Below the pieces are notes generated by a model. It was not told where the DNA came from. It searched no databases and saw only the letters and a list, made by a program, of their open reading frames with translations. A stretch of DNA of 61,613 bases, counting the filler, from Deltaproteobacteria bacterium (lineage in GTDB: Bacteria > Myxococcota > JACRCW01): NCBI GenBank assembly GCA_016218805.1. It is 3 parts of 3 records of this genome, joined end to end, with 100 filler letters (N's around TTAATTAATTAA, not from the genome) between each part and the next. Parts side by side here need not be neighbours in the genome. Positions count along the whole stretch, not along the records: positions 21,281 to 47,278 come from JACRCW010000046.1; 2 more parts are not named here. The stretch is one strand, 5' to 3'. Positions 23,700 to 40,360 of the stretch are shown here, in pieces. The translations under genes were made by a program, and so were the position numbers. Within the stretch, counting starts at the first letter, position 1; each line of letters begins with the position of its first letter.

Positions 23700-23970
23700 A
23701 TGCAATTCACGGATCACGCATTCCGTGCAGGTCCTCCGCGAAATGCAGTACTGAGCGAGCAAACCGCCGTAATATAACGCATTCTCGCGAGGCTCCGAGA
23801 ATCCCGCAATTGTGACGGCAAAGTTGACGTCAATAGGCTTGCAATCAACGAAGCCAATGCCAACGGCTCAACTTCATCAATGATTACGCCCGTTTCAGAT
23901 TGAGGAAAATTGCCACGCATGCGAGAGCCCCTTCCGCGCCCGACGGCACCCCGTCGAGGTGCCGGAGGAA
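23700..23970 (+). promoter_or_regulatory. AT-enriched promoter/operator region of the cytochrome locus
   Basis: Visibly lower GC than the flanks; palindrome TTGACGTCAA (23824-23833); GATTACGC-like motifs; GGAGG RBS at 23964-23968. Confidence 0.6.
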
Positions 23971-23975
23971 TGGCA

Positions 23976-26900
23976 ATGGGCAATCGCGTCACGTCCCGCG
24001 TCTTGTGTGGCTGGCTCACCCTCTTGTGCCTGGTCGCGGCGGTGCCCGCGGTCGTGTTGGCGGACGCGCCCGCGGCAGTGCCCGCGGTGCTGTCGTCTAC
24101 CGTCTCCGCGGACCGCATTGCCGTGGACCGCAACGGCGACATCTATGTTGCGGACGCGCGTGCGCTGGCGGTGCGCGTGCTCAGCCGGTCCGGTGCGCCG
24201 TTGCGCACCGTGGAGATCAAGGGTGCGCCCACGGCGGTGGCCGTGACCGCGTCCGGCCGCCTGGTGGTGGCAGACCGTGAGCAGGGCCGCGTGGACGTGA
24301 TGGACGGTTACGGCGGGCTCATCACCACGCTGGGCCGCGGCACGGGGGAGTTCCAACTCCCGCTGGGCGTGGCGGAATCCGCGGTGGACGGACGCATCTA
24401 CGTGGCGGACGCCCGGGCGGAGACCATCCGCGTGTACGGCGCCGACGGCGTGCATCACTTCAACATCGCCGTGACGGGGACGCTGGTGACGGACCTGGCC
24501 ATCTCGGCCGGCCACGTCTACGCCTCTGACACAAAGAACTCGCAGGTGCTGGTGTATTCCACCGCCGGCGTGTTCGAGCGGCGCATCGGCAGCTTTGGCG
24601 TCGGGATGGGAGAACTGACGCGGCCCGCCGGTCTGGACATCGGCCCGGATGGCAACCTGTACGTGGTGGATGCCTACCAGTCACGCATTGCGGTGTTTGG
24701 CGCGGATGGGACGTTCCTGCGGTTCCTGGGCCGCTTTGGCACCGGCAAGGGCGAACTGGCCCAACCGTTGGACGTGGCCGCGGACCCCGCGGGCAGCATC
24801 ATCATTGCGGACAGCGGCAACGTGCGCCTGCAGGCGTGGATGCTGCTGACGCCGCCCAACCCCGCGGACGCGGTGCGCGTGTTCCCGGCCGAGCCCCCCG
24901 TGGTGGAAGCGCCGCGCCAGGCTGACACGCGCGCGGCGCCTGCCACGGGCGGCCAGGCTCCGGCGCGCACGGACCAGAACTGCGCGCAGAGCGCACCGGT
25001 GGACCTGGCCGCGCTCGGCGTGCTGGTGGCGTTGTGGGGCCTCGCGCGTCGTCGTCGCGCCGCGGGGTTGATTGCGCTGGGGCTGGTGCTGCTGCCGCGC
25101 GCCAGCCTGGCCCTGGATGCGCCGCATGACACCTCGCGCCTGCCCACGGCGTGCGCGCAGTGCCACACGCCGCACAACGCGCCCGGGGCGGCCATCACCA
25201 CCACCGCCGGTAACTCCAACCTCTGCCTCACCTGCCACGCCACCATGGCACTCACCACGCCCAGCTGGGCGGGCACGGACCAGGCCATCCCGGGAACCAG
25301 CGGCAGTTCGCACCGGTGGGACGCGCTGATGGTGAACGCCACGTACAACGCGGCGGCCCCCACGGACGCGGAGATGTTGCTGCGCACGGAGGGCACCGGT
25401 GCCACCGCGCGCCTGATGTGCAGCACCTGCCACAACCAGCACAGCCAGCAATTGACGCCTTTTGATCCCGCGTCCTCCGCCACGGCCGGCGCCAACAACC
25501 GCCACTACATGCGCGCGGCCAACAACACCGCGCAGATGTGCCTGCAGTGCCACGGCGCGTGGAACCAGGCGCCGCAGCGCGGTGCGTGGGCGGCGGCCAG
25601 CAACTACGTGCACCCCGTCAACACGGTGCATCCCGTCGCGGACCCGCTCATGTACCCGGTCCCGCGGGACACCACCAACAACCCGCAGAGCGCCATCCTG
25701 CGCGGCGCCGCCACCACCACCGCCGCCGGCACCGGCACCATGACGGACTCCACCGCCGCGTTCCCGGCCAACCTGGGCACCGTGCCCGCGGGCGGTCACA
25801 AGATCCGCTTCACCACCGGCTCCAACAAGGGCCGCGTCTGCACCATCACCACCAACGCGGCCACCAGCGCCAACTGGGTGGCGGCTGCCTGCACGGTCAA
25901 TGGTGCTGCATCCGCGCAGACCGTCGCCATCGCGCTCGGTGATCGCTACGAAATCGACCAGGACGGCAACTTCACCAACAACCTGGCCCTGGACAACGCG
26001 GGCAACCGGTCCTTCACGGCCGGCAACGTGGTGTGCACCACCTGCCACGGTCTGCACTACGCGGACTCCAACTCCGCCACGTATGATGACAAGCCGCAGG
26101 CTGGTGACGGCAAGCTGCTGCGCCGCACCAACAGCGACCTGGCGTGCAACGGCTGCCACCGGGAGTTGACGCACAGCAGCGCCACCACGTCCACCACCTA
26201 CGGTGTGTGGGGCGCCACGTTCACCTGCACCACCTGCCACCAGGCGCACCGCACGGGGAACATCTGGCTGGTCAAGGGCACCATTGCTACGCCCAACAGC
26301 GGCAACAAGGCGGTGGACTTCCGCAACATGACGGGCAAGGCGGACTTCTCGTACGCCACCTCCACCACGCCCGGCAACGGCGTGTGCGAGGTCTGCCACA
26401 CCCTGACGCGCAACACCGACGGCAGCGCGCGCTTCCGCAACACCGGCGGCTCCGACGGCGGCCAACACTTCAGCGGCAAGTGCACCACCTGCCACCAGCA
26501 CACCAACGGGTTTGCCTCCAGCTGTACGTCCTGCCACGGCAACCCGCCGGCCAACGGCACGCACGCCACGCACGTGGGCGTGCTCACCAGCGGCACCTAC
26601 GGCGGCCTGCAGCTGGCTTCTGACGTGGGCCCCAACCCCACCGGCTACGGTTTTGGCTGCGGCTACTGCCACCCGCTCAACATTGCCAAGCACATGAATG
26701 GCACCAACGGCGGCAAGGCGGAGGTGGAGCTGTATGACGCCACCGCGCCGGCCGGGAACCTCAAGCTCCGCTCCACGACGGCGTCGTACACGTACGGCGG
26801 CACCACGTTCAATGAGGTGGGCTTCACCACGCCGGTGCCGTACACGCTGGGCACGTGCAGCAACGTGGCCTGCCACAGCGGGCCCAAGTTCGACACCACC

Positions 26901-27587
26901 GGCAATGCGCCCTACACCACCGTCCCGCAGCCCGCGCTCACCGGCAACGGCACCACCACCTTCACGTGGAACCCGGCGGTCTGGCCCATTGTGTACCCGG
27001 CGGGCAGCTACACGGTGGCTGAGACGCGCACGTACTCCAGCGTGACGTGGGGCGCCGCCGCGCTGACCTGCGGCAGCTGCCACGGCAACCCCATCCGCAG
27101 CACGTCACGCTCCGCCGTGCCGGCGGGCACCAATGACGGCGCCGGGGACACGCACAGCTGGATTGACCAGTACGGCTATGAGAACGACCACGCGTGGAAC
27201 ATGGGCTTCACCGCGCTGCAGTGCCGCACCTGCCACTACGCCACCGTGCAGGGCTCGGCCACCGTCACGCGCAACGCACTGGGCGTGTCCACCTACGGTG
27301 ACATCACGCCCAAGAACAACACCACGTTCAACTTTGCCAAGCACGTCAACGGCGTGAAGGACGTGGCGTTTGACACCGTCAATACCTACCCGTACGCGGG
27401 TGCCACCTTCAGCCTGACGCCCAACCTCACCACGGCAACCTGGACCGCGGCCTCCAAGACCTGCAGCAACGTGGAGTGCCACAACCACCCGGCCACGGAA
27501 CCCAAGCTGTACGAATCCTCCGTCGTGTGGGGCACGCCGTACCGCTGGGAAAACGCGTTCGAGTGCAACGTCTGCCACCGCAAGTGA
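23976..27587 (+). CDS. NHL-repeat/multiheme c-type cytochrome fusion (14 CxxCH + 2 CxxxxCH) with an internal MYXO-CTERM-like segment and second signal peptide
   Basis: Signal peptide (..VPAVVLA), NHL repeats (GELTRPAGLDIGPDGNLYVVD), NCAQS..hydrophobic..RRRR..hydrophobic..ASLA, then 16 heme motifs counted by eye, including CSNVACH and CSNVECH. Confidence 0.93.
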   Translation: MGNRVTSRVLCGWLTLLCLVAAVPAVVLADAPAAVPAVLSSTVSADRIAVDRNGDIYVADARALAVRVLSRSGAPLRTVEIKGAPTAVAVTASGRLVVADREQGRVDVMDGYGGLITTLGRGTGEFQLPLGVAESAVDGRIYVADARAETIRVYGADGVHHFNIAVTGTLVTDLAISAGHVYASDTKNSQVLVYSTAGVFERRIGSFGVGMGELTRPAGLDIGPDGNLYVVDAYQSRIAVFGADGTFLRFLGRFGTGKGELAQPLDVAADPAGSIIIADSGNVRLQAWMLLTPPNPADAVRVFPAEPPVVEAPRQADTRAAPATGGQAPARTDQNCAQSAPVDLAALGVLVALWGLARRRRAAGLIALGLVLLPRASLALDAPHDTSRLPTACAQCHTPHNAPGAAITTTAGNSNLCLTCHATMALTTPSWAGTDQAIPGTSGSSHRWDALMVNATYNAAAPTDAEMLLRTEGTGATARLMCSTCHNQHSQQLTPFDPASSATAGANNRHYMRAANNTAQMCLQCHGAWNQAPQRGAWAAASNYVHPVNTVHPVADPLMYPVPRDTTNNPQSAILRGAATTTAAGTGTMTDSTAAFPANLGTVPAGGHKIRFTTGSNKGRVCTITTNAATSANWVAAACTVNGAASAQTVAIALGDRYEIDQDGNFTNNLALDNAGNRSFTAGNVVCTTCHGLHYADSNSATYDDKPQAGDGKLLRRTNSDLACNGCHRELTHSSATTSTTYGVWGATFTCTTCHQAHRTGNIWLVKGTIATPNSGNKAVDFRNMTGKADFSYATSTTPGNGVCEVCHTLTRNTDGSARFRNTGGSDGGQHFSGKCTTCHQHTNGFASSCTSCHGNPPANGTHATHVGVLTSGTYGGLQLASDVGPNPTGYGFGCGYCHPLNIAKHMNGTNGGKAEVELYDATAPAGNLKLRSTTASYTYGGTTFNEVGFTTPVPYTLGTCSNVACHSGPKFDTTGNAPYTTVPQPALTGNGTTTFTWNPAVWPIVYPAGSYTVAETRTYSSVTWGAAALTCGSCHGNPIRSTSRSAVPAGTNDGAGDTHSWIDQYGYENDHAWNMGFTALQCRTCHYATVQGSATVTRNALGVSTYGDITPKNNTTFNFAKHVNGVKDVAFDTVNTYPYAGATFSLTPNLTTATWTAASKTCSNVECHNHPATEPKLYESSVVWGTPYRWENAFECNVCHRK

Positions 27588-27596
27588 AACACCGGG

Positions 27597-27631
27597 CCGG
27601 GCGGCGCGCCCCCTCCTTGCGCGCCGCCCGG
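27597..27631 (+). terminator. 13-bp GC-rich hairpin after the first cytochrome gene
   Basis: CCGGGCGGCGCGC/GCGCGCCGCCCGG; no U-tract, so it may be a stabilising stem instead. Confidence 0.45.
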
Positions 27632-27903
27632 GCCTCCCTGCCCAAGGAACACGTCACGGTCCGGCACTCCTCCCCAGGCGTGCCGCGCCGCGCTGTGCGG
27701 TACGCACCACACCGCACATGACCTCGCGCAAGGGGTTCGCGGTTTCCAGTGTGTGGGCGCATCAATCGCGGTTTAGCCTTCTTTCTCTCGTCGACAACCG
27801 GGATGCGTCGCGGGCGATCTCCGCTTTCCAAATCGCGTGATTTACGCCTATTCTGTCCGCAACTGACACGGCGCCCGCGTCGCCGCAATCCCCGGGGTGA
27901 GCG

Positions 27904-30900
27904 ATGTTGAAGCGAATCGACCACGGTTCTCTGGCCACCCGCCTGTCCGTGGCCGCGCTGTTGGCGGCCACCATCACACCAGCCAAGGCGCAGGCGCTGT
28001 GCAGTGCACGCGCGCCATGCCCGGTGGTTGACGACGTGGTGACCTCCGCGGAGCCGGCACCGGCCGGCGGCACCGTGCAGGTGCGGTGCGCCGCGCATGA
28101 CGCGGACGGCGTCATCACCCGCTTCACATTCCAGTCTGCCACCGGGTTGTTTGCCAACGGCGCCTCGTCGGTGGACGTGGTGCCGGACACCGCGGCAGCC
28201 AACGCCGCCGTGACCACGGCGTGGCACGTGCCACCGGACCCCGGCGCGGGCCACACCGTCCAGTGCACGGCATGGGACAGCGGCAGCCTGGGCGGCGCGC
28301 CCAACGCGTCCACGCCCGCCACGCTGGCATTGACCACCGCGCCGCCGGAGCTCCTCCCCACCGTGGACGCCCTGAACGCGGACCGCTTCACCCTGTTCCC
28401 TGACGAAGTTGCCTCGCTGGTGGCGGTGGCGCACGACCCGCTGGGTGGCGCGTTGTCCTTCAGCTGGACGGGCGCGGGTGGCGCGCTCAGCGGTGACCTG
28501 GACGCGGACCCGGAGCGCGTGACGTGGACGGCGGTGGCGGTGGGGACCTTTGGCGTGGATGTCACCGTGACCACGCAGGACGGCTTCCGGGCCGCCGCGC
28601 GCGTGAACCTGACGGCGGTGTGGGCCAAGCCGGATCCGGTGGGGGTCAGCGCGGTGACGCCCAGCCCGGTGCGCGTGAGCGCGGATGGACGCGGCTGGCT
28701 GTACGCCACGGACGCGCGGCGCCGCGTGGTGGACGTGGTCACCGGCCACGGCGAACGCGTGGCCACCGTGCCCATCCAGGGTGAACCCGGTGGGATTGTG
28801 GTGGTGCCCACCGGCGAGTTCTGGCTGGGTGACATGGAGCGCGGCGGCGCGTGGCTCACGGACCTGACCGGCGCGCGCTTGCGGCCGCTGGGCGCGGGTG
28901 ACGGCGAGTTCTTGGGTCCGCAGGCATTGGCGGCGGACCTGCTGCGCGGGCAGGTGGTGGTGGTGGATGGGCCTGCGCACCGCGTCAGCGTGTATGACAG
29001 CGCGGGCTTCCGCGTGCGCGCGGTTGAACTGCCGGACGCGTATCCCGTGGGCGTGGCGGTGGATGCGCCCACCGGTGAGTTGTACGTGGCGGACTCCACG
29101 GGCGGCCGCGTGCGCGTGCTGGCGCCGGACGGCACGTTGGCGCGGACGCTGGGCGCGTTTGGCAGCGGCCCGGGCGAACTGACGCGCGTGGGCGGCGTGG
29201 CCCTGGCCGGCGATGGCAACGTCTACGTGGTGGATACCTTCCAGTCGCGGGTGGCGGCATTCACCCGGGCCGGGGCGTTTGTCGCGTTCCTGGGGCGGTT
29301 CGGGACGGCGCCCGGCGAACTCAAGGTGCCCATCGACGTTGTGGAAGACCCGTGGCAGCGGCTGTGGGTGAGCAACACGGAGAACGGGCGGTTGGAGGTC
29401 TTTGACCTGCAGGGCAGCCGCCCGGTGGCGTGCGCGCAGGATGCGGATTGCGACGGTCTGCCTGATGCGTGGGAAGTGGCCATGGCGCTGGACGCGGCGC
29501 ATGCGTTTGACGCGCTGCTGGATGCCGACGGGGACGGCCTGTCCAATGCGGCGGAGTACGCGAACGGGACCAGCGCCATCCGGGTGGACACCGACGGAGA
29601 CGGGGTGGCGGACGCGGTGGAACTGGCGCGCGGCACGGACCCGGTCAGCGCGCTGGACAACCTGCCGCGCGCCGTGGCCGGCCTGCGGTCTGGCCCGCTG
29701 CCGGGCGCCGCGTGGCTGGACGCGGCGGGCTCCACGGATCCCAACGGTGACCCGCTGTCCTACCGCTGGGTCTTCCGCTCCGGGCCGGAGGCGGTGAGCC
29801 TGGTCCACGCCGATCAACCCCTGGCCGCCGCGGTGCTCCGCCGCGCGGGTGACTACGCGTTTGAGCTCACCGTGGGGGACGGGACCGCGTGGAGCCGCCC
29901 CGCGGTGCTCAGCGTGCACGTGGACAACGTGGCACCGGCCGCGGATGCCGGCGCGCTCATCACCGCCATGCCCGGCCGCACCGTGGTGCTGGACGGGAGC
30001 CGCAGCGCGGACCCCAACGGTGATGTGCTGGCCCACGCGTGGCGGCAGGTGGAGGGCGCGGCGGTGGTGCTGGAGGACGCGGGGGCCGGCCGCGCTCGGT
30101 TCACGCCGGCGGGCGCAGGGACGTACGCGTTTGAACTGGTGGTCCATGACGGCGCGCACGCTTCAGGCCCGGCGCGCGTGGAGGTGGTGGTCAACGCGGC
30201 GGATGACCACGTGCCGCTGGCCGTCACCACCGCCGCGGTCACCGGCCAGGTGGGCCGGCCGCTGGTGCTGGACGGAGCGGCCAGCCAGGACCCGGAGCGC
30301 GCCACGCTGTCCTACGCGTGGCGGCAGGTGGACGGCGCCACGGTCACGCTGTCCGGCGCGGATTCCGCCCGCGCGGCGTTCACGCCGTCGCAGCCCGGCG
30401 TGTACGGCTTCCGCCTGCGCGTTGCTGATCCGCAGCACACGTCCCCGGAGGTGCCGGTCACCGTGGTGGTGGACGGCGACAACCACCCACCGCGCGCCGC
30501 CGCGGGCACGGACCTGCGCGTGAACGTCCTGGACGTGGTGACGCTGTCCTGCGCGCTCAGCCAGGACGCGGATGGTGAGACCCCGTCCTGCGCCTGGACG
30601 CAGCGCCAGGGTCCGCCGGTCACCCCCGAGCCGCGCACGGGCGGCATGGCCTTTGTCCCGGTGGACAGCGGCACGTACGTCTTTGAGCTGCTGGTATCTG
30701 ACGCGGCGGGCACCGGCACGCGTGACCGGTTGACGGTGGTGGTGGACGACCCGGCGCGCAATGCGGTGCCCGTGGCGGTGGCGACGGTGGAAGACCCGGT
30801 GCTGCTGGGCCGCCCGGTCACGCTGCACGGGGAAGCATCCACCGACGCGCAGGGCGGGCTGCCGCTGTCCCACGCGTGGACGCAGGTTGCCGGTCCATGG

Positions 30901-33900
30901 ATTCCCATGGAAAACGCGCGGGACCCGGCGCCCGTCATCACGCCCTCCGCCTTGGGCCGCTACGCCTTTGAACTGCGCGTGGATGACGGGCTCACGCGCA
31001 GCCCGCCCGCGCGCGTGGAGTTTGCGGTGACGGCGCCCGGCAACCGCCGCCCCGTGGCCCGTGCGGGTGATGACCAGCTGGCCGTGCCCGGCACCGCGGT
31101 GGTCCTGGATGGGTCACAGAGCCGTGACCCGGATGGGCAGACGCTGACGTTCCGCTGGGAGCAGGTGGCCGGCGCGCCGGCGCTGCTGGCGGGCACGGAC
31201 CGCGCGGCGCTGGCGGTCACGCCCGCCGTGGCCGGTGACACGCTGCGCTTCCGCCTGTCCGTGGATGACGGCGCCCAGCAGCAGGACGAAGACGTGATGA
31301 ACCTGACGGTGGTGGACGTCCCGTTTGGCCTGCGGCCGGTCAACGGCAACGGCGCGCATATTGTGTTTGACGTGGCGGGGCACGCGCTGTCCGGCGCGGT
31401 GGTGGACGTCCCGCCATCCAGCTTCCCCGGCGAGGTGACGCTGGCGGTGGGTGCGGTGGGCCGCGCGTGGTTTGCCGCGGAAGGCCGGACGCCGCTGGGT
31501 GACGCGCTGCTGGTGGGGCCGCTGGGTGAGACGCTGCCGCCGGGAATGACCGTGCAGCTGCCGCTGCCCGCCGCGCTGGTGCAACCGGGCGTGGACCCGG
31601 CCGCCCTCCGCGTAGCGAGGTACGACGCCGGGACGGGCGCATGGACGGATGTGGAAGACACCACGGTGGACCTGTCCGCCGGCACGGTGCGGTGCGCGCT
31701 GCCTGCCGCGGGCGCGCTGCAGCTGCACCTGCCCGTCGGCGGTGGGGACGAGTTGCACGTGGACCTGCTGCCCGTCCGCTTGGGTGACGCACAGTTGTCC
31801 GTCGGCTGGTCCGCCACGCCTCCGGCCGAAACCGGCGACACTCCACCGCCTGCGGCGGGCGGTGATACCGGCACGCGGTGGGGTTGCCAGGGCGCGCCGG
31901 CAGGTGACGGCGCGCTGTATGGCGCGCTGGCCATGGGCCTGTGGTGGCTCATGCGTCGTCGTCCTCGTCGCGCGGCCGTGGTGGCCGCCATGTGCGTGGC
32001 GGCCTGGAGCACGGACGCCGCGGCCACGGATGCCCCGCATGATTTCGCCACGTTGGCCAATGGCTGCAATGACTGTCACCAGGTGCACAACGCGCCGGGC
32101 CTCAACCTCACCAAGACCGCCGGCAACGCCAACCTCTGCATGAGCTGCCACGCGTCGGGCCAGATGGCCTCCACGCTGCCGTTCTCGTCAGCGGACCAGG
32201 CGGTGCCGCGCACCTCCGGCTCATCCCACCGCTGGGATGCCAACGTGGTGAACGTGGCAGCGGGCGCCACCGCGCCCACCAACCCCAACCTGCGGCTGGA
32301 TACGGGCAAGCTGATGTGCTCCACCTGCCATGACCCGCACAGCCAGGCCAACGCGCCGTTTGACCCCAACGCATCCGCCACGGCGGGCGCAGCGGGCCGG
32401 CACCTGCAGCGCATTGCCAACAACGCCAACCAGGCCTGCCTGGACTGCCACACGTCCTGGGTGATGAGCAGCGTCAATGAGGCCGCGTGGACCGGCGCCA
32501 ACCTCAGTCACCCCAGTGGCGTTGCCGCCAACGTGGCAGACCCCACGTTCTTTGCCACGCCTCACGATTCCACGGGTGTGGACCAGGTGGCCGCCATCTC
32601 CGGCAGGGCCACGTCCGCGGGCACCACCACCACGCTCAATGACAACACCAAGGCGTGGGTGGTGAACGCCTTGGCCGGCCTGAACATCCGGTTCACCAGC
32701 GGCGCCAACAAGAACCTGGTGCGCCTTGTCAGCGCCAACACCGCCACGCAGGTCACGTTCGCCGCGGCCAGCTCCGCCACCGCCCTCAATGACCGCTACG
32801 AAATCGACCGTGACGGCAACACGAGCAACAACCTGGTGCTGGACAATGCCGGCACGCCGTCCTTCACCACCGGCAACGTGGTGTGCATGAGCTGCCACGG
32901 CGTGCATTACGCGGATTCCAATACGGCCACGTATGATTCGTCCGCCACGGCGGCGTGCACGGGTGCGGACTGCGGGCTGCTGTTGCGCCGGTCCAACAAC
33001 AACGACGCCTGCACGGGTTGTCACAACCTGACGGTCCACAGCAGCGCCACCACGTCCACCAAGTACGGGACCTGGGGCACCACGTTCACCTGCCAGACGT
33101 GTCACCAGCCGCACAAGACGCCCAATACCTTCCTGGTGCGGCAGACGCTCAACGGCAAAACCGTGGATTTCCGCAACCTCACCGGCAAGGCGGACAACAG
33201 CTTTGCCACCGTCACCGTGCCCGGCAACGGCCCGTGCGAAGCCTGCCACACCCTCACCCGCAACAAGAACGGCACCGCCCGGTTCCGCGGCACGGGCGGG
33301 TCTGACAGCGGCACGCACTACCCGGGCACCTGCACCACGTGCCACACGCACGCCAACGGCTTCTTCTGTGATGAAAGCAGCGGCAACCGCCCGTGCGCCG
33401 CGTGTCACCAGTTCAACATGCTCATCACGGATGCGTCCCGCGCCACCAAGTACCACCACGTCATGGAGGCGGACGTGAAGTTCACGGCCGGCCTCACCAC
33501 CTACCCCACGGTGGCGGCCCCCACCGTGGCCACCGCGGACCAGGACAAGACGTGCGTGCAGTGCCACGCGGACCACAACATCTTCCGCGAGGACGTCAAC
33601 GCGCTCAACACGCTGGGCAGCAGCGCCAACCTGCGCACGCAGATTGCCGTGGCGCCCAGTGCCGCCGGACCCAGCGGGACCGCCGCGGGGTATTTCAACA
33701 ACATTGATTTCAACAACACGTTCACCGCCGGCGGCATCTGCATCTCCTGCCACGCCAGCGCGCAGACCAAGAACGTGACGGACCAGAAGAGCAGCGCCAC
33801 CACGGTCACACCCGTCGTGGCGCAGGGGGTGTTCCAGGCATCCGCGCACTCGTACTCCGTGGGCGGCACCTTCCGGAACGGGAACTATACGTTCAACGTG

Positions 33901-35754
33901 GTGTGCACCAAGTGCCATAATGATGATTCGGTGAAGTCCTTCCAGACGGGAACCAACCAGTTTGCGCTGCACGGGTCCTTTGACCGAAGCCTGCGCGCGC
34001 CGTTGGGCATCACCACGCCTACGGACCCCATTGAGGAGCAGTTCTGCTACCGCTGTCACCACAAGACCACGGATACCAACCCGGGCGGCGGCCCCGCCAA
34101 GACGGTGGCCAACATGGACTGGTACGGCGGCCGGCCCATGACCGCGGGTGCGCAGGACGTGTTCACCCAGATGCAGAAGGGCAGCGCATCATCACCCGCC
34201 GGCAACCCCACCACCACCACCAACACGCTGTATTTCATCCCCACCACCACACCCACGGCGCCCGCGCCTGCTGATCACCAGGCCGCCCCCACGGCGGACA
34301 CGTTTGCTGGCGGCACCTGGGCCGGCCGCACCATGGTCCCCTACCCCTCCGCCGTGGCCTATGAAAGCCAGACCGCCACCAACCAGGCGGTGGCCACGGG
34401 AACGCAGACCTGGCGGCGCGTCTCTTTTGTGTCACCACCCATTGCCACCGCCACCACGACGACCGCGGCCGCCTGGACCCTCAACGTCTTTGACCGTGAA
34501 AGCAGCAACAACGCCAACGCGCGCGTTCGCTATGCCATCTACCGGTGGAACGCCAACAACACCAAGGGCAGTGACATTGTCACGCGCACCAACTTTGGCA
34601 CGGAGATGAGCACCACGGCCGCACCGGGTGGGCAGCAGACCATCACCACCGCCGCCGGAGGCGCGGTGGCGCTGGCGGTGGGGGACAAGATCGTCGTGGA
34701 CCTGGAGATCCAGACGCTCACGGTCGGCACTGCGGGCACCTACCAGATGACCTACTTCTTTGGGAACGGTGCCGCGTCCAACGTGGTGATGCCCAACAAC
34801 ATCACTTTCACGTACACCAGCCAGGCCTCCCCGGCCTCCGGCAGGCATGACGTGGCGGCTTACGCCGGCGTGCACAAGGCCAGTCCCACCGACGAGACGC
34901 TGGCATACATCAGCGCCAACAAACACGTGGAATGCATGGACTGTCACAACCCGCACGCGTCCGGTGCCACCCGCCACACCCAGGGTGTCGCCGCGGGCAA
35001 CACCATTGGCGCGGCGTCCATGCTTGCTGGCGTGTCCGGTGTGTCGGTCACCTATTCGGCCACCAACTTCACCGCGCCCACGGCCTACGCGGCCACCACG
35101 GCGACGATGGAACACCAGATCTGTTACAAGTGCCACTCCGGCGCCAACACCAGCCTGGCCACGTGGGATGCCACCTGGACCAACGTGGCGCTGGAGTTCA
35201 GTCCCGCCAACAAGTCCCGGCACCCGGTGGTGTCCGGGTTGGCCGCGGCCGGCACCGGGACCACCGCGCTCCCCGCCGCATCCATGAAAGCGCCGTGGAA
35301 CACCGCCGTTGGGACCCAGACCATGTACTGCTCAGATTGCCACGGGAACGACGCGGCCAGTCCTGCGGCGCAGGGGCCGCATGCCTCCGCAGTGAAGTAC
35401 ATGCTGCGCGGGCCGCTCACCGCGTGGCCGAATCTGCTGGGGAGCCAGTTCACCAGCAGCTTCTGTGCAAACTGCCACAACCAGGCCACGTCCCCGCACA
35501 CGGCGGACAACGCGCACACCAACACGGCGCGCTGCTACAACTGCCACGTCGTGGTCCCGCACGGCGGGAAGATGTCCCGCCTCATTGGCGACAACAACGG
35601 GACCATGCCCACGCGGTACGCGTACCAGGGCGTGTTGTCCAACATGTGGATCCAGAGCTTCACCAAGAACACCGGCAGCTACCAGAAGTCCAATTGCCAG
35701 TCCGGCACCAGCGGTTGCACCACGCACGGCACCGCGGCAACGGAAAACTGGTAG
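27904..35754 (+). CDS. giant Ig/NHL/TSP3/6xPKD surface protein fused to a 19-heme c-type cytochrome via an internal GC-TM-RRR segment and second signal peptide
   Basis: Signal (..AKAQA), two Ig-like domains, NHL propeller, DxDxDG repeats, six 'LDGS.S.DP.G..L.Y.W.Q'-type PKD repeats (~29660-31320), GCQG..LWWLMRRRPRR..AAA, then 19 CxxCH counted by eye. Confidence 0.93.
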   Translation: MLKRIDHGSLATRLSVAALLAATITPAKAQALCSARAPCPVVDDVVTSAEPAPAGGTVQVRCAAHDADGVITRFTFQSATGLFANGASSVDVVPDTAAANAAVTTAWHVPPDPGAGHTVQCTAWDSGSLGGAPNASTPATLALTTAPPELLPTVDALNADRFTLFPDEVASLVAVAHDPLGGALSFSWTGAGGALSGDLDADPERVTWTAVAVGTFGVDVTVTTQDGFRAAARVNLTAVWAKPDPVGVSAVTPSPVRVSADGRGWLYATDARRRVVDVVTGHGERVATVPIQGEPGGIVVVPTGEFWLGDMERGGAWLTDLTGARLRPLGAGDGEFLGPQALAADLLRGQVVVVDGPAHRVSVYDSAGFRVRAVELPDAYPVGVAVDAPTGELYVADSTGGRVRVLAPDGTLARTLGAFGSGPGELTRVGGVALAGDGNVYVVDTFQSRVAAFTRAGAFVAFLGRFGTAPGELKVPIDVVEDPWQRLWVSNTENGRLEVFDLQGSRPVACAQDADCDGLPDAWEVAMALDAAHAFDALLDADGDGLSNAAEYANGTSAIRVDTDGDGVADAVELARGTDPVSALDNLPRAVAGLRSGPLPGAAWLDAAGSTDPNGDPLSYRWVFRSGPEAVSLVHADQPLAAAVLRRAGDYAFELTVGDGTAWSRPAVLSVHVDNVAPAADAGALITAMPGRTVVLDGSRSADPNGDVLAHAWRQVEGAAVVLEDAGAGRARFTPAGAGTYAFELVVHDGAHASGPARVEVVVNAADDHVPLAVTTAAVTGQVGRPLVLDGAASQDPERATLSYAWRQVDGATVTLSGADSARAAFTPSQPGVYGFRLRVADPQHTSPEVPVTVVVDGDNHPPRAAAGTDLRVNVLDVVTLSCALSQDADGETPSCAWTQRQGPPVTPEPRTGGMAFVPVDSGTYVFELLVSDAAGTGTRDRLTVVVDDPARNAVPVAVATVEDPVLLGRPVTLHGEASTDAQGGLPLSHAWTQVAGPWIPMENARDPAPVITPSALGRYAFELRVDDGLTRSPPARVEFAVTAPGNRRPVARAGDDQLAVPGTAVVLDGSQSRDPDGQTLTFRWEQVAGAPALLAGTDRAALAVTPAVAGDTLRFRLSVDDGAQQQDEDVMNLTVVDVPFGLRPVNGNGAHIVFDVAGHALSGAVVDVPPSSFPGEVTLAVGAVGRAWFAAEGRTPLGDALLVGPLGETLPPGMTVQLPLPAALVQPGVDPAALRVARYDAGTGAWTDVEDTTVDLSAGTVRCALPAAGALQLHLPVGGGDELHVDLLPVRLGDAQLSVGWSATPPAETGDTPPPAAGGDTGTRWGCQGAPAGDGALYGALAMGLWWLMRRRPRRAAVVAAMCVAAWSTDAAATDAPHDFATLANGCNDCHQVHNAPGLNLTKTAGNANLCMSCHASGQMASTLPFSSADQAVPRTSGSSHRWDANVVNVAAGATAPTNPNLRLDTGKLMCSTCHDPHSQANAPFDPNASATAGAAGRHLQRIANNANQACLDCHTSWVMSSVNEAAWTGANLSHPSGVAANVADPTFFATPHDSTGVDQVAAISGRATSAGTTTTLNDNTKAWVVNALAGLNIRFTSGANKNLVRLVSANTATQVTFAAASSATALNDRYEIDRDGNTSNNLVLDNAGTPSFTTGNVVCMSCHGVHYADSNTATYDSSATAACTGADCGLLLRRSNNNDACTGCHNLTVHSSATTSTKYGTWGTTFTCQTCHQPHKTPNTFLVRQTLNGKTVDFRNLTGKADNSFATVTVPGNGPCEACHTLTRNKNGTARFRGTGGSDSGTHYPGTCTTCHTHANGFFCDESSGNRPCAACHQFNMLITDASRATKYHHVMEADVKFTAGLTTYPTVAAPTVATADQDKTCVQCHADHNIFREDVNALNTLGSSANLRTQIAVAPSAAGPSGTAAGYFNNIDFNNTFTAGGICISCHASAQTKNVTDQKSSATTVTPVVAQGVFQASAHSYSVGGTFRNGNYTFNVVCTKCHNDDSVKSFQTGTNQFALHGSFDRSLRAPLGITTPTDPIEEQFCYRCHHKTTDTNPGGGPAKTVANMDWYGGRPMTAGAQDVFTQMQKGSASSPAGNPTTTTNTLYFIPTTTPTAPAPADHQAAPTADTFAGGTWAGRTMVPYPSAVAYESQTATNQAVATGTQTWRRVSFVSPPIATATTTTAAAWTLNVFDRESSNNANARVRYAIYRWNANNTKGSDIVTRTNFGTEMSTTAAPGGQQTITTAAGGAVALAVGDKIVVDLEIQTLTVGTAGTYQMTYFFGNGAASNVVMPNNITFTYTSQASPASGRHDVAAYAGVHKASPTDETLAYISANKHVECMDCHNPHASGATRHTQGVAAGNTIGAASMLAGVSGVSVTYSATNFTAPTAYAATTATMEHQICYKCHSGANTSLATWDATWTNVALEFSPANKSRHPVVSGLAAAGTGTTALPAASMKAPWNTAVGTQTMYCSDCHGNDAASPAAQGPHASAVKYMLRGPLTAWPNLLGSQFTSSFCANCHNQATSPHTADNAHTNTARCYNCHVVVPHGGKMSRLIGDNNGTMPTRYAYQGVLSNMWIQSFTKNTGSYQKSNCQSGTSGCTTHGTAATENW

Positions 35755-35779: not shown

Positions 35780-37075
35780 ATGGTAGGGCTTGCCGTCGTG
35801 TGGACCACGCTCCGCGGGGCGCTTCGCTCCCGCACGCTCATCCTGGCTGAGTTGCTGCTGGTGGCCCTGGCGGGAGTGCTGCTCACGCTGGTGCCGCAAC
35901 AGGACGAAGCGCCGCTGCCGCCGGAGCACTGGCTGCACGCACACCCGGCGCTGGTGACGGCGCTGCGCGTCCTCGAGCTCGACCGGGTGCTGCGCGCGCA
36001 CTGGTTCGCCGCGCTCATTGCGCTTGCCACCGTCACGCTGTCCGTGGTGCTGGTGGACCAGTGGCGCCGCGCTGCGCGGGTGCTGGTGCGGGCGCCGGAG
36101 GAAAGCCAGTTCCACGACGCGCCCCTCCGCGGCGGGTGGGAGCGGGATGTGGTCCCCGGCACGGCGGCGCTGCGGTTCCAGGTGAGCGGGCGCGCGGCTG
36201 GGCTGGGGCCGCCGGTGTTTCACTCGGGGCTGTGGTGCGTGGTGGTGGCCGGGCTGCTGCGGGTGTTGTGGGGTGCGGATGCGCAGGTGGACCTGGTGGA
36301 GGGCGAGACGCTGCGCGCCGGGCCCGGGGCATGGAGCGCGCAATGGCCCGGACCGTTGGCGGCTGCCGTGTCGCTGGAGGCGCCCATGCGCTTCGACCGA
36401 TTGCGCGTGGCGCGGTACGCGTCGCTGGATCTGCGCGGCCTGGTGGCGGAGGTCACGCACGGAGACGAGCCGGTGGAGGTGGCCGTCAACACGCCGCTCA
36501 ACGTGGGCCCCGAGCGGGTCCACCTGGCCCTGCTGCACGGGCCGGCCGTGTTGTTGGAGGTGGCGGGAGCGCGCGGCGCGGAGCGCGCGGCCGTGCTGGC
36601 CTGGCCGTCCTCCACACGCGGCGTGTACGAGGGCACGGCCGTGTTGGAGACGGGTATGGACGTGGTGGCGCGGGCGCGGATCGACGAGGAGGCGCACCTC
36701 CCCGCGCAGGTGGAGCTGCGGGTGAAGCGCGGCAGCGCGCTGCTGTTTGTCGGCGCGGTTGCCGCGGGTGCGGTGTTCACCGTGGAGCCGGGAACCACCT
36801 TCACCGTGCACGGCATCCGCTGGTGGGCCCGCTTCAACGGCAGCCGCGACATCGCGTGGTGGCTCGCGTACGCGGGGTTTGCGTTGTGCGTGCTGGGGGC
36901 GATGTTGATGTTCCTGGTCACCCGCGTGGACACCCTGGTGCGGGTCACGCCTTGCGGCGCGGGGCGTGAGCGCGTGGAGGTGGTGCTGCGGCCGCACCGG
37001 TTTGCGCCTTTGTACCGCGAGCGGCTGGACCAGGTTGCGCGGTCCGAGGGCTGGAGAGGAGAAGGGCCGCCATGA
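35780..37075 (+). CDS. resB: cytochrome c biogenesis protein ResB/CcsB (System II)
   Basis: LL.LVPQ motif, WF in the second TM region, His in TM3 (GPPVFHSG), LVEGE, large periplasmic domain, final TM (LAYAGFAL); adjacent to ccsA. Confidence 0.82.
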   Translation: MVGLAVVWTTLRGALRSRTLILAELLLVALAGVLLTLVPQQDEAPLPPEHWLHAHPALVTALRVLELDRVLRAHWFAALIALATVTLSVVLVDQWRRAARVLVRAPEESQFHDAPLRGGWERDVVPGTAALRFQVSGRAAGLGPPVFHSGLWCVVVAGLLRVLWGADAQVDLVEGETLRAGPGAWSAQWPGPLAAAVSLEAPMRFDRLRVARYASLDLRGLVAEVTHGDEPVEVAVNTPLNVGPERVHLALLHGPAVLLEVAGARGAERAAVLAWPSSTRGVYEGTAVLETGMDVVARARIDEEAHLPAQVELRVKRGSALLFVGAVAAGAVFTVEPGTTFTVHGIRWWARFNGSRDIAWWLAYAGFALCVLGAMLMFLVTRVDTLVRVTPCGAGRERVEVVLRPHRFAPLYRERLDQVARSEGWRGEGPP

Positions 37076-37602
37076 AGGGGTGGATGCTGCTGCTGGGTGG
37101 CCTCTGGCTGGGCGGCTGCCGCCAGTTCACCGACGCCTCCGCCGAGAAGACGGTGCGTGCCTACAACGCGCGCGTGATTGAGGCGTACCGCTCCGCCGAC
37201 CCCGCGCTGGTGGAGCCGGTGGCCGGCCCGGACGAGGCCAAGAAGCTCACCGGCTCCATTGGGGTGAAGGTGGACCAGGGCATCACGCTGGACAGCGAAC
37301 TGCTGGAGCTCAGCGTCGATAGCGTGCGCCGCACCGACGAGCGGGTCACGGTGGTCACGCGCGAATCCTGGCGCTACCGGGACCGCCGCATTGGCACCGG
37401 CGAGCAGGTGGGCCAGTCCTCCCAGGACCGCTACCACATGGAGTACGACCTGCAGCGCGTGGACGGGACGTGGAAGGTGGTGGAGACGCGCTTTGCCAGC
37501 CCGCCGCAGGTTGGCCGCACGGAGGTTCCCAACCAGGCCCCGGCCGATGTTTTGCATGGCGTCATCAAACCCCCCCTGGCACCCGCGCCGGAGCCCAAGT
37601 GA
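37072..37602 (+). CDS. hypothetical lipoprotein between resB and ccsA
   Basis: Lipobox LGGC; 4-nt overlaps with both neighbours; V.T.E.W.Y..Y.L....WKV pattern suggests an NTF2-like fold. Confidence 0.8.
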   Translation: MKGWMLLLGGLWLGGCRQFTDASAEKTVRAYNARVIEAYRSADPALVEPVAGPDEAKKLTGSIGVKVDQGITLDSELLELSVDSVRRTDERVTVVTRESWRYRDRRIGTGEQVGQSSQDRYHMEYDLQRVDGTWKVVETRFASPPQVGRTEVPNQAPADVLHGVIKPPLAPAPEPK

Positions 37603-38426
37603 GCCGTTTTGCCCTGGAAGTGACCCTGCACTGGACCGCGGTGGGGCTCTACATCGTCGCCACGCTGTTCTTTGCGCTGGCCACGTTGCTTGACCGTCCC
37701 CACCGCACGCGCTGGGGCGTGTGGGCCGCGCTGGCCGGACTGGTTCCGCACAGCGCGGCCATTGTGGTGCGCTGGGTGGCCTCCGGGCACGGCCCGTACA
37801 TGCTGCGCCACGAAGTGCTGTCCTCCAACGCATGGGTGGCCGTGCTGGCGGTGGCGCTGTTCCTGTGGCGCCGCCCGGGCTGGTCCGCCATGGGCCTGGT
37901 GGTGGTGCCTGTGGCGTTCCTGGCCATGGCGGTGGGCGTGTTCACCAACCTGGAAATCCGTGAGCTGCCGCCCACGCTGCGCTCCGTCTGGCTCGTGTTC
38001 CACATCTCGTTTGCAAAGCTGTCCACGGGTGGCTTCCTGCTCTCGCTGGGATCCGCGGTGGTGTTGCTGTGGAAGGGCCGCGTGAGCCACCCGCAAGCCC
38101 TGCAGCGCCTCCCGGAGGCGGACGCACTGGATGCGTACATCGCACGTTTCGCGGGATTCGGGTTCGTGTTCTGGACCATTTCCATTGCGGCGGGATCCAT
38201 CTGGGCCAACCAGTCTTGGGGGCGGTACTGGGGCTGGGACCCCATTGAAACCTGGTCGCTGGTGACGTGGCTTTGCTACGGCAGCTTCCTGCACGCACGG
38301 CTGTTCTTCCGCCTGCGCGGGACCACGGCGGCCTGGGGCAGCGTGGCCTGCTTCAGCGTGGCGGTGCTGACCATCTTTGCGCTGCCGTTCTTGATGCCGT
38401 CCATCCATGCGGCGTATTTCCAGTGA
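37599..38426 (+). CDS. ccsA: cytochrome c biogenesis protein CcsA/ResC
   Basis: RW..SGH.P, LRSVWLVFHI, WWD domain GSIWANQSWGRYWGWDPIETWSLVTW, FLHAR. Confidence 0.95.
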   Translation: MSRFALEVTLHWTAVGLYIVATLFFALATLLDRPHRTRWGVWAALAGLVPHSAAIVVRWVASGHGPYMLRHEVLSSNAWVAVLAVALFLWRRPGWSAMGLVVVPVAFLAMAVGVFTNLEIRELPPTLRSVWLVFHISFAKLSTGGFLLSLGSAVVLLWKGRVSHPQALQRLPEADALDAYIARFAGFGFVFWTISIAAGSIWANQSWGRYWGWDPIETWSLVTWLCYGSFLHARLFFRLRGTTAAWGSVACFSVAVLTIFALPFLMPSIHAAYFQ

Positions 38427-38463: not shown

Positions 38464-39936
38464 ATGCGCAACCGCTTGAAGGTGATGATGGTGACGCCGC
38501 CCTACCACTCGGGCGTGGTGGAGAGCGCGGGCGTGTGGATGCCGCTGAACTTCACGTACCTGGCGGGGCATGCGCGGCGCGCGGGTGCGGAGGTGCGCAT
38601 TCTGGACGCCATGAGCCTGTTCCTCAGCCATGACCAGATCACGGCGGAGGTGGAGCGCTACAAGCCGGACGTGCTGTGCACCACGGCCATCACGGCCATG
38701 GAGCCGGACGCGCGGGAAGTGTGCCGCAACGCCAAGCGGGTGCATCCGCCGGTGATCACGGTGATGGGCAACGTGCACGCCACGTTCATGCACACCCAGC
38801 TCATCAATGAGGAGCCCGCGCTGGACATTGTGGTCCGCGGTGAGGGCGAAAAGACGATGGAGGACCTGGTCCACGCGCTGTCCGGCAAGGCGGGGCTGGG
38901 GAGCGTGGCCGGCATCACCTGGCGCAGCGGCGGCACCGCGGTGATCAACATGGCGCGGGACTTTGAGGAGGACCTGGATGGGCTGACGCCGGCGTGGGAC
39001 CTGCTGGATTGGAGCATCTACAAGTACCGCCCGCACCCGGAGGGGCAGCTGGCCATTGTGAGCAGTTCGCGCGGGTGCCGGCAGCGCTGCAGCTTCTGCA
39101 GCCAGCAGAAGTTCTGGGAGCGCACCTGGCGTGGCCGCCGGCCGGAGGCGGTGGTGGAGGAACTGGCGTTCCTGCGTAAGCATTACAACGTGCAGGTGGC
39201 CATGTTGTCAGATGAGACGCCCACGGTGAACCGCGCGCGCTGGGAGCGCCTGCTGGACCTGATGATTGAACGGAACACCGGCGTGGAGCTGCTGATGGAG
39301 ACGCGCGTGGATGACATCCTGCGCGACGAGGACATCCTGTACAAGTACGTCAAGGCGGGCGTCAGCCACGTCTACCTGGGCGTGGAGTCCACCAGCCAGG
39401 ACACGCTGGACCTGTACAAGAAGGACACCAAGGCGGCCCATGGAAAGCGCGCCATTGAGCTCATCAACCAGCACGGCATGGTGAGTGAGACCAGTTTTGT
39501 GCTGGGGACCCCCGGCGAAACGGTGGAATCCATCCGCCGCACCGTGGAGCTGGCGCAGTGGTACGGCCCGGACATGGCGTTCTTCCTGGCCATCACCCCG
39601 TGGCCGTACGCGGACCTGTATGAGGAACTCAAGTCCCACATCGCGGTGACGGATTACCGGCATTACAACCTGGTGGAACCGGTGGTGCAGCCGGACAAGA
39701 TGTCCCTGGCGGAGATGCAGCGCGAACTGCACCGCGCCACCGGCCACTTCTTCATGCACAAGTTCATGCACCTGGAGCAGCTGCCGCCGGCCAAGCAGGA
39801 CTTCATGATCCGCGTGCTGAAGCTGCTCATTGAGCACAGCTACCTGGGCAAGGAGATGCGCGAGATGGCCGGCCACGCCGCCATGCCGCCGCAGATCCGG
39901 GAGCTGCTCGGGAAACTGGGCCTTTCGCTTGGCTGA
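38464..39936 (+). CDS. cobalamin-binding radical SAM protein (class B methyltransferase/BchE-like)
   Basis: N-terminal B12-binding domain (GNVHAT, VVRGEGE), SSRGCRQRCSFC (CxxxCxxC), LGVES, FVLGTPGET. Confidence 0.93.
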   Translation: MRNRLKVMMVTPPYHSGVVESAGVWMPLNFTYLAGHARRAGAEVRILDAMSLFLSHDQITAEVERYKPDVLCTTAITAMEPDAREVCRNAKRVHPPVITVMGNVHATFMHTQLINEEPALDIVVRGEGEKTMEDLVHALSGKAGLGSVAGITWRSGGTAVINMARDFEEDLDGLTPAWDLLDWSIYKYRPHPEGQLAIVSSSRGCRQRCSFCSQQKFWERTWRGRRPEAVVEELAFLRKHYNVQVAMLSDETPTVNRARWERLLDLMIERNTGVELLMETRVDDILRDEDILYKYVKAGVSHVYLGVESTSQDTLDLYKKDTKAAHGKRAIELINQHGMVSETSFVLGTPGETVESIRRTVELAQWYGPDMAFFLAITPWPYADLYEELKSHIAVTDYRHYNLVEPVVQPDKMSLAEMQRELHRATGHFFMHKFMHLEQLPPAKQDFMIRVLKLLIEHSYLGKEMREMAGHAAMPPQIRELLGKLGLSLG

Positions 39937-40360
39937 GGGGCCGCGCCACCCGCGCGCCGCGTGGGTGCTGCTCGCCGCCGTGCTGCTGGGTGCGGTGGGC
40001 TGGGGCAGCTGGGCGCTGGCGCAGCGCGTGGCGTTTGTGCAGTACCCGGAGGACGAGGTGGCCTCCATCCGCTACGTGCACGCCTACCGCGGCCGCCCCG
40101 TCTGCCAGGCCTGCCACCCCGGCCGTGACCAGACCCTGGCCGCGCACCCCACGCGGCTGTGCACGCGCTGCCACGCCGCGCTGCATGACAGCCACCCCTA
40201 TGACATCCCCCAGCCACAACCCGAGCGCTGCCGCCTGCCGCTCCACGACGGCACCATCACCTGCCACACCTGCCATGACCCGCATGACACGCAGTCCCGG
40301 CGCGCGGGCCTGTGGCTGCCGTTCAATGAGCTGTGCCAGCGCTGCCACCCCGGCCACTGA
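39929..40360 (+). CDS. small tetraheme cytochrome c (doubled-CXXCH type)
   Basis: N-terminal hydrophobic segment; CQACH, CTRCH, CHTCHDPH, CQRCH; TTG start overlapping the radical SAM stop is an estimate. Confidence 0.85.
   Translation: MAEGPRHPRAAWVLLAAVLLGAVGWGSWALAQRVAFVQYPEDEVASIRYVHAYRGRPVCQACHPGRDQTLAAHPTRLCTRCHAALHDSHPYDIPQPQPERCRLPLHDGTITCHTCHDPHDTQSRRAGLWLPFNELCQRCHPGH

Follow-up and report, generated by a model that had tools for sequence, protein, structure and literature searches.

Two paralogous cytochrome genes of a groundwater myxobacterium carry an internal MYXO-CTERM-type tag joined to a predicted second signal peptide

Two giant genes, each with a joint

The stretch of DNA analyzed here (the window, 61,613 nucleotides including filler) derives from a groundwater myxobacterium (Deltaproteobacteria bacterium, GCA_016218805.1; genome G000) and comprises three contigs, separated by runs of N, of a fragmented metagenome assembly of 170 contigs. 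Entirely within one of them, contig C165, lie two giant open reading frames (ORFs), and in the middle of each is an element that we call the joint: a Cys motif, a hydrophobic helix, an Arg cluster, a second hydrophobic helix and an AxA motif, directly followed by a multi-heme cytochrome. A reading made from the DNA alone (the sequence-only reading) had proposed that the joint unites a MYXO-CTERM-type sorting tag with a second signal peptide, such that one translation product would give two exported proteins. On re-translation both frames were open, as this reading had said, and it was right about the order of the elements and the coordinates of the two joints.

ORF1 (23976–27587, plus strand) encodes 1203 amino acids, the length of database protein P0001, and its frame is free of stops to 27587 from either the start at 23976 or an alternative TTG start at 23910. 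It begins with a signal peptide (23976–24062, plus strand; predicted by eye from hydropathy, ending VVLA) and an NHL beta-propeller (approximate limits 24102–24836, plus strand; PF01436, PF17170 and PF06739). Joint 1 (24981–25112, plus strand) follows, with the Cys codon at 24981, a membrane helix, four arginines at 25047–25058 and a second hydrophobic helix whose predicted cut site, SLA, ends at 25112. Cytochrome 1 (25113–27587, plus strand; 824 amino acids) starts with LDAPHD at 25113 and contains 14 CxxCH and two CX4CH motifs, 16 heme motifs in all; it scores 32.9 bits against TIGR01904 (CxxxxCH/CxxCH domain; cut-off 27).

ORF2 (27904–35754, plus strand; 2616 amino acids) is free of stops over its whole span. 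Its signal peptide (27904–27990, plus strand; predicted by eye, ending TPAKA) is likewise followed by NHL repeats, matched in both ORFs by a Pfam scan, and between the propeller and the joint Pfam also finds TSP3 and several PKD domains. Joint 2 (31882–32025, plus strand) consists of GCQG from 31882 (Cys at 31885), a membrane helix, an in-frame ATG at 31951, RRRPRR directly after it, and a second hydrophobic helix whose predicted cut site, AAA, ends at 32025. Cytochrome 2 (32026–35754, plus strand; 1242 amino acids; matched in Pfam) starts with TDAPHD at 32026 and has 19 CxxCH motifs and no match to TIGR01904. At its C-terminal end (about 35715–35754) there is also an unusual motif, C-X6-C-X2-H, which might be one more heme site, the twentieth. 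The earlier heme counts of 16 and 19 were thus confirmed by recounting, and the domain plan said to be shared by the two ORFs holds for the signal peptide and the NHL propeller but had omitted the TSP3 and PKD domains of ORF2. A PDB sequence search with both cytochromes gave no matches at E<=0.01, and an AlphaFold2 model of cytochrome 1 (35-row alignment) was unusable, with a mean pLDDT of 40 and a pTM of 0.34.

The two ORFs are paralogues, with 50% identity across the joint and the start of the cytochrome, and their joints are therefore not independent evidence of origin. The sequence-only reading had argued that an arrangement occurring twice is no artefact; the artefact is indeed rejected, but the independence of the two occurrences does not stand. 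That an assembly or sequencing error removed a stop codon is very improbable, even though the assembly is fragmented and no contig covering Joint 1 (24981–25112) is among the read-contig pieces listed. Joint 2 is spanned with zero differences by contigs from two sequencing runs, X1 (30891–33101) and X3 (31260–32602), while a contig from a third, X2, reaches 32022, just short of the end of the joint; no indels were found among the listed pieces of these runs, all of which belong to one groundwater study that possibly includes the source sample; no RNA run carrying the sequence is listed. The same plan is also present in six other organisms, and joints with other partners are found in complete genomes.

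The two halves of the joint

Judged by its residues, the first half of the joint is built like a MYXO-CTERM tag, in a genome that uses such tags. As in the MYXO-CTERM/myxosortase sorting described for TraA and MrtX in the available text of 10.1101/2023.06.07.544157 and PMC11980579, there is a Cys motif at the start of the tag (24981 and 31885; invariant in joint alignment A1), a hydrophobic helix and then a basic Arg cluster in both joints, an N-terminal signal peptide, and a genome with many tags, a cognate protease and a type II secretin. Of 58 places inspected in this genome, about 36 hold an ordinary tag at the end of the protein (counted by eye). The myxosortase gene whose presence had been raised as a check was found, one of six CPBP proteases (Mrt_core 113.9 bits, cut-off 100), and both the GspD secretin and the signal peptidase I LepB are present above their cut-offs. 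The tag of ORF1 begins NCAQS and thus lacks the usual Gly; taken as a fragment, Joint 1 scores 17.4 and 17.3 bits against TIGR03382 (cut-off 15.85), with no match to TIGR03901, and the homologous joints L015 and L021 lie above the MYXO-CTERM cut-off.

Unlike the tags of that sorting system, those of ORF1 and ORF2 do not have the defining position at the C-terminus: 842 residues follow the tag in ORF1 and 1263 in ORF2, and a second signal comes next, so that membership in the MYXO-CTERM group would hold only after the predicted cut. The tripartite sorting signals of sortase A and archaeosortase can work away from the C-terminus according to works cited in the available text of PMC11980579 (Navarre and Schneewind 1994; Abdul Halim et al. 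2017), whose titles name no second exported protein. All three internal tags of this genome, compared with about 36 ordinary terminal ones, are followed by a second helix and AxA, the third, unrelated to the other two, being on contig C130. That third joint (G000:C130:2739–4553, minus strand; locus L011) scores 29.6 bits against TIGR03901 and comes after a small RHS/Fn3-associated protein; its passenger seems to shift frame into a long ORF of RHS repeats, and L011 looks broken or frameshifted.

The second half of the joint has the hallmarks of an internal signal peptide, namely a basic n-region, a hydrophobic h-region and small residues at positions −3 and −1. Signal peptides were judged here by hydropathy, motif and register with homologues. 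The same cytochrome family occurs stand-alone in several phyla, starting directly after an N-terminal signal-type stretch. Among 49 stand-alone homologues the cytochrome starts at the same residue as in the fused ORFs, and at this homology-defined start the (−3,−1) small-residue rule holds for all eight fused and for 46 of the 49 stand-alone cytochromes. The proposal of a second signal peptide is borne out to this extent, the putative cut site being in register with the signal-peptide end of the stand-alone proteins, and signal peptidase I is likely to cut after SLA or AAA, leaving the N-termini LDAPHD and TDAPHD. Heme attachment by system II (ResB/CcsA) is periplasmic. On grounds of topology the second helix would be required: a stop-transfer helix with no such helix behind it would leave the cytochrome in the cytoplasm, beyond the reach of ResB/CcsA.

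The joint in other genomes

The fused cytochrome plan occurs in six other organisms (P0002, P0011, G127, G025, G244 and G037, the last four each from a different family). All six fused homologues found keep the series of Cys, membrane helix, Arg cluster, hydrophobic stretch and AxA, as had been predicted of homologues; P0002, an independent homologue, has the same NHL-joint-cytochrome plan as ORF1 and is 40% identical to it across 95% of the searched region. We also examined 20 other cytochrome loci, mostly of one family, one of them at a contig edge and one with its upstream frame unprinted, and in 18 of the 20 a separate upstream gene ends at or overlaps the start of the cytochrome gene. On a quick tree of 48 rows, eight of them fused, the fused state requires four changes, at least three of which are forced by well-supported branches, and it has therefore been gained or lost more than once. 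In a further locus (L018, near 1500–1580), the cytochrome gene has no ATG, GTG or TTG and a strong GGAGG stands ahead of an ATT codon, while the upstream gene has a Cys-rich tail and no membrane helix; an ATT start or a decayed joint is possible there.

The joint itself is distributed far more broadly. Two routes were used to find it: a 7-row joint profile was run against 401 genomes of the phylum, with at most 16 candidates scored per genome, and 26 full-length, stop-free matches were followed up; and a TraB-like barrel query was run against 201 genomes, the hits being chosen by homology and a long frame and not by the presence of a joint. By the barrel route, all 22 distinct long-frame ORFs contain the joint (by eye). 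The combined set holds at least 52 joints in 43 Myxococcota genomes and 12 families (53 script rows, with one shadow-frame row dropped), which is a floor and not a frequency; six barrel loci whose joint was recognized by eye scored below the script threshold and were left out of the 52. The stretch after the Arg cluster is hydrophobic in 50 of the 52 joints and in 7 of 40 read-through controls, a comparison to which no weight is given here, since a profile holding that helix had served to pick most of the joints. A search of 1.84 billion representatives with the profile, which is too short for a census, returned only 15 matches.

The proteins that follow the joint include OmpA/TraB-like barrels, a TonB-dependent receptor, matrixins and metalloproteases, TPR, VWA and CARDB/Ig proteins (domain scan of 41 pieces, 14 of them without a match). 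Given so many unrelated partners across the phylum, the idea of a design specific to cytochrome polyproteins is rejected. Five joints (L083, L084, L099, L102 and L103) end their second signal in a lipobox Cys, predicting release by lipoprotein signal peptidase. Several ORFs contain more than one joint: L078 (3497–15211, minus strand; 3905 amino acids) and P0079 (4011 amino acids) have three each, L083 has two, and P0081 has two plus a terminal tag. In L078, four CARDB/Ig units are each parted by a joint, and L078, P0079 and P0081, single ORFs of 2800–4000 amino acids with repeated units, are by their sequences the strongest candidates for polyproteins. In P0080 the joint links an MXAN_2561-like tagged protein, its tag beginning NCAQS as in ORF1, to a barrel that resembles MXAN_2562; NCBIfam treats the two as different families, and both score under their cut-offs. 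In the same way, L091 (22–3432, minus strand) joins an MXAN_6640-family metalloprotease to a TonB-dependent receptor.

One arrangement of this kind has a published relative. In Myxococcus xanthus, MXAN_5598 has an internal MYXO-CTERM that separates an adhesin-like part from a second protein, and the available text of PMC11980579 (mBio 2025) suggests a gene fusion with processing of the N-terminal part for this one atypical case; that text makes no mention of a second signal peptide, signal-peptidase release, cytochromes or multi-unit polyproteins. Five adhesin-joint-TraB-like barrel genes from five genomes (L147–L150 and L152) share the plan of MXAN_5598 and its place between or beside ftsA and ftsZ, and are its presumed relatives by synteny. 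In all five the second signal ends AxA|Q. In another barrel fusion, the loop indels are 12 nucleotides long and keep the frame (five genomes, one genus). From these comparisons the joint is a linker that recurs in Myxococcota, and it appears to arise when a gene with a tag is immediately followed by one for another exported protein.

The sequence-only reading had known of no description of the architecture. That assessment holds for the linker of tag plus signal, in that no description of a MYXO-CTERM fused to a second signal, or of such a bacterial polyprotein, was found in literature that left subscription journals mostly outside its coverage and whose supplementary tables may list more internal tags. 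It is too broad for the components, since both an internal tag (MXAN_5598) and a bacterial two-protein precursor are in print. The latter is FbcH of Bradyrhizobium japonicum, reportedly characterized by Thony-Meyer, James and Hennecke in 1991, in which one gene is said to give two proteins, the second a c-type cytochrome released at an internal site of the signal-peptidase type. Its first product is reportedly a polytopic inner-membrane protein, and it is said to be a single case; here, in contrast, the first product carries at its end a sorting tag for another protease, and joints are found with many unrelated partners, as many as three in one ORF. Viral envelope polyproteins, in work said to be by Liljestrom and Garoff (1991), reportedly also follow a stop-transfer helix with an internal cleavable signal, but these are viral proteins of the eukaryotic endoplasmic reticulum and offer an analogy only. 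Taken together, the arrangement is a new variant of known sorting machinery: the tag-plus-signal joint is real, conserved and broader than cytochromes, and its predicted processing is well argued.

Predicted processing and possible function of the precursor

Downstream on the plus strand are genes for cytochromes and their maturation. A ResB-like cytochrome c maturation protein of system II (35780–37075; PF05140) is followed by a small predicted lipoprotein (37072–37602; NTF2-like, below cut-off) and a CcsA/CcsB cytochrome c assembly protein, the system II heme lyase (37599–38426; PF01578; TIGR03144 158 bits, cut-off 187.6). Farther on are a tetraheme cytochrome (39830–40360, start uncertain) and a predicted lipoprotein cytochrome (40561–42354; 9 CxxCH plus CX4CH motifs; TIGR01904 77.5 bits). 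Judged by eye, the latter is similar to the C-terminal third of cytochrome 1 and shares both CX4CH motifs with it, which suggests modular shuffling. A BchE-like B12 radical SAM gene (38464–39936; TIGR02026 401 bits, under cut-off) also lies within the cytochrome cluster, perhaps with a role in heme or protein modification. At the end of contig C165 (45393–47330) there are transposase- and integrase-like ORFs by eye, the tested frames being without a Pfam match. Genome-wide, 33 ORFs have at least four CxxCH motifs, four of them having 30–33, which points to an anaerobic lifestyle rich in cytochromes. In the Uet cluster of Tenderiales (10.1101/2022.05.06.490989) and in clusters of Desulfovibrio ferrophilus (PMC9769857), both linked to extracellular electron transfer, NHL proteins occur together with multiheme cytochromes and CcsA/CcsB; in those clusters, as far as the available texts of the two papers describe them, the NHL protein and the cytochrome are separate genes, whereas here they are fused.

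A single open frame holds parts that are whole proteins elsewhere, and we consider it probable that each of the two genes encodes two complete exported proteins whose common precursor is cut during export by signal peptidase I. In such a scheme, the N-terminal signal would send the NHL part (in ORF2 the NHL-TSP3-PKD part) through Sec until the first helix stops transfer, and by the positive-inside rule the Arg cluster would stay in the cytoplasm. The second helix would then re-open export and bring the cytochrome to the periplasm, where heme would be attached by the adjacent ResB/CcsA. Signal peptidase I would cut after SLA or AAA, at the observed register, and expose LDAPHD or TDAPHD; the myxosortase would cleave at the Cys, and delivery of the first protein to the surface would fall to the type II system, as the available text of PMC11980579 leads one to expect from ordinary MYXO-CTERM proteins. 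The result would be a propeller protein bearing the tag and, separate from it, a free multi-heme cytochrome. The sequence-only reading is supported, each of its testable predictions at the level of sequence having held; from the observed frame, motifs, register, conservation and enzyme genes we infer every cut and every location, including surface display and the place of the cytochrome, and a 1:1 stoichiometry is a proposal of that reading.

Several results weigh against this reading. The cut is a prediction, drawn from hydropathy, motif and register. Within a longer fragment, Joint 1 falls to 14.5 bits against TIGR03382 (cut-off 15.85), with no match when the full protein is used, and Joint 2 is under the cut-offs of both TIGR03382 and TIGR03901 (11.5/11.6 bits, and 7.5/7.3 bits in a second scan). 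Some ordinary terminal tags of the same genome (on C26 and C151) have scores as low as that of Joint 2. In all 18 split cytochrome loci with a visible upstream gene (mostly one family), that gene lacks a tag, and surface anchoring of the propeller is therefore not needed everywhere. For 33 of the 52 joints, which come from or were found with a profile containing the second helix, the presence of that helix is therefore circular evidence. In addition, the ATG of ORF2 at 31951 occupies position −1 relative to the arginines, and a Shine-Dalgarno-like duplex of −6.3 kcal/mol was calculated for it; a Met is retained at this place in G025 and P0011 as well.

These Met codons raise the prospect of in-frame nested genes, in which ribosomes would also start inside the joint (in ORF2 at the ATG at 31951), most of the cytochrome would arise as an ordinary pre-protein, and read-through would be secondary. 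In ORF2, MRRRPRR with its hydrophobic stretch and AAA forms a complete N-terminal signal, and the split relatives show overlapping stop/start coupling exactly here. Across the larger set, though, an ATG within −12 to +2 of the Arg cluster is found in 11 of 52 joints compared with 10 of 40 terminal-tag controls, a rough control set taken from one genome and including a few false tags, and a duplex of −5 or stronger in 12 of 52 joints compared with 25 of 40 controls, which is a rough guide as the genomes are mixed. In the stretch between the Cys and a point seven codons into the Arg cluster, 10 of the 52 joints have no ATG, GTG or TTG and 37 have no ATG, and the joint of ORF1 has only GTG and TTG, with duplexes weaker than −5. 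Moreover, no stop lies in the way of a ribosome that set out from the first start, and the long precursor would be made even if an internal start were used. The ten joints with no start codon include three outer-membrane barrels, L091 and the cytochrome of G244 being among those without one. An outer-membrane barrel that remains attached to the inner membrane is unable to function; it must leave, and cleavage of the long precursor is thus the simplest route in these joints. We regard nested genes as an improbable explanation. At ORF2, where an ATG and a duplex precede a complete signal peptide, both routes may run, and the ratio of the products need not be 1:1.

Alternatively, the joint might be a permanent two-helix hairpin, with the protein either remaining uncut in the inner membrane, its propeller and cytochrome both on the periplasmic side, or being cut by myxosortase only, leaving the cytochrome anchored. 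Cleavage being predicted from sequence, such a hairpin would suit the very short cytoplasmic loop and the low tag scores of ORF2, and inner-membrane-anchored cytochromes are common. Yet AxA stands at the same residue as in the cleavable homologues, and the same joint lies ahead of outer-membrane barrels as well as of lipobox cysteines, and these have to be released or processed as lipoproteins; we therefore think the hairpin quite unlikely, somewhat more so than nested genes.

If the precursor is cut, what is likely gained is that partners are made and exported together; here these would probably be parts of an extracellular electron-transfer cluster. A different view of purpose, compatible with cutting, is that the fusions are tolerated accidents, in which a lost stop codon joins a tagged gene to the exported gene behind it; their products are cut and work, but the fusions confer no advantage and come and go by drift. 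The fused cytochromes are scattered on the tree, the partners are very mixed, terminal tags in this genome often lie just before another exported gene (as on C128), and some joints keep a Met and a spacer in the manner of recent fusions (P0011). Against drift, in most joints the Met and the spacer are gone and a single Arg cluster is shared, the ftsA/ftsZ barrel fusion is kept in five genomes, another barrel fusion is frame-conserved across indels, and the split cytochrome loci have no tag altogether. Mere tolerance is thus on the unlikely side, although it carries appreciable weight.

We hold it possible, if with slightly more doubt than belief, that Myxococcota use a selected, modular polyprotein linker: a hairpin of about 50 residues in which a tag and a signal peptide (of the signal peptidase I or lipoprotein type) share an Arg cluster, and by which two to four envelope proteins per frame would each reach their own place (surface, periplasm, barrel or lipoprotein) in a fixed ratio. 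At the present locus, a propeller scaffold for the surface would be delivered together with a cytochrome of 16 or 19 hemes, belonging to a family not yet described, in the service of extracellular electron transfer. Polyproteins cut by proteases are typical of viruses and eukaryotes, whereas bacteria rarely have them. If such a linker exists, many giant myxobacterial ORFs annotated as one protein would be two to four, with wrong localisation calls, and housekeeping signal peptidases and a sortase-like enzyme would act in series on one chain, providing a compact cassette for co-export in a fixed ratio. M. xanthus has both an MXAN_5598-type protein and a myxosortase mutant, so that the idea is testable there. 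For this groundwater bacterium, the locus ties large, uncharacterised multi-heme cytochromes to a cell-surface sorting route.

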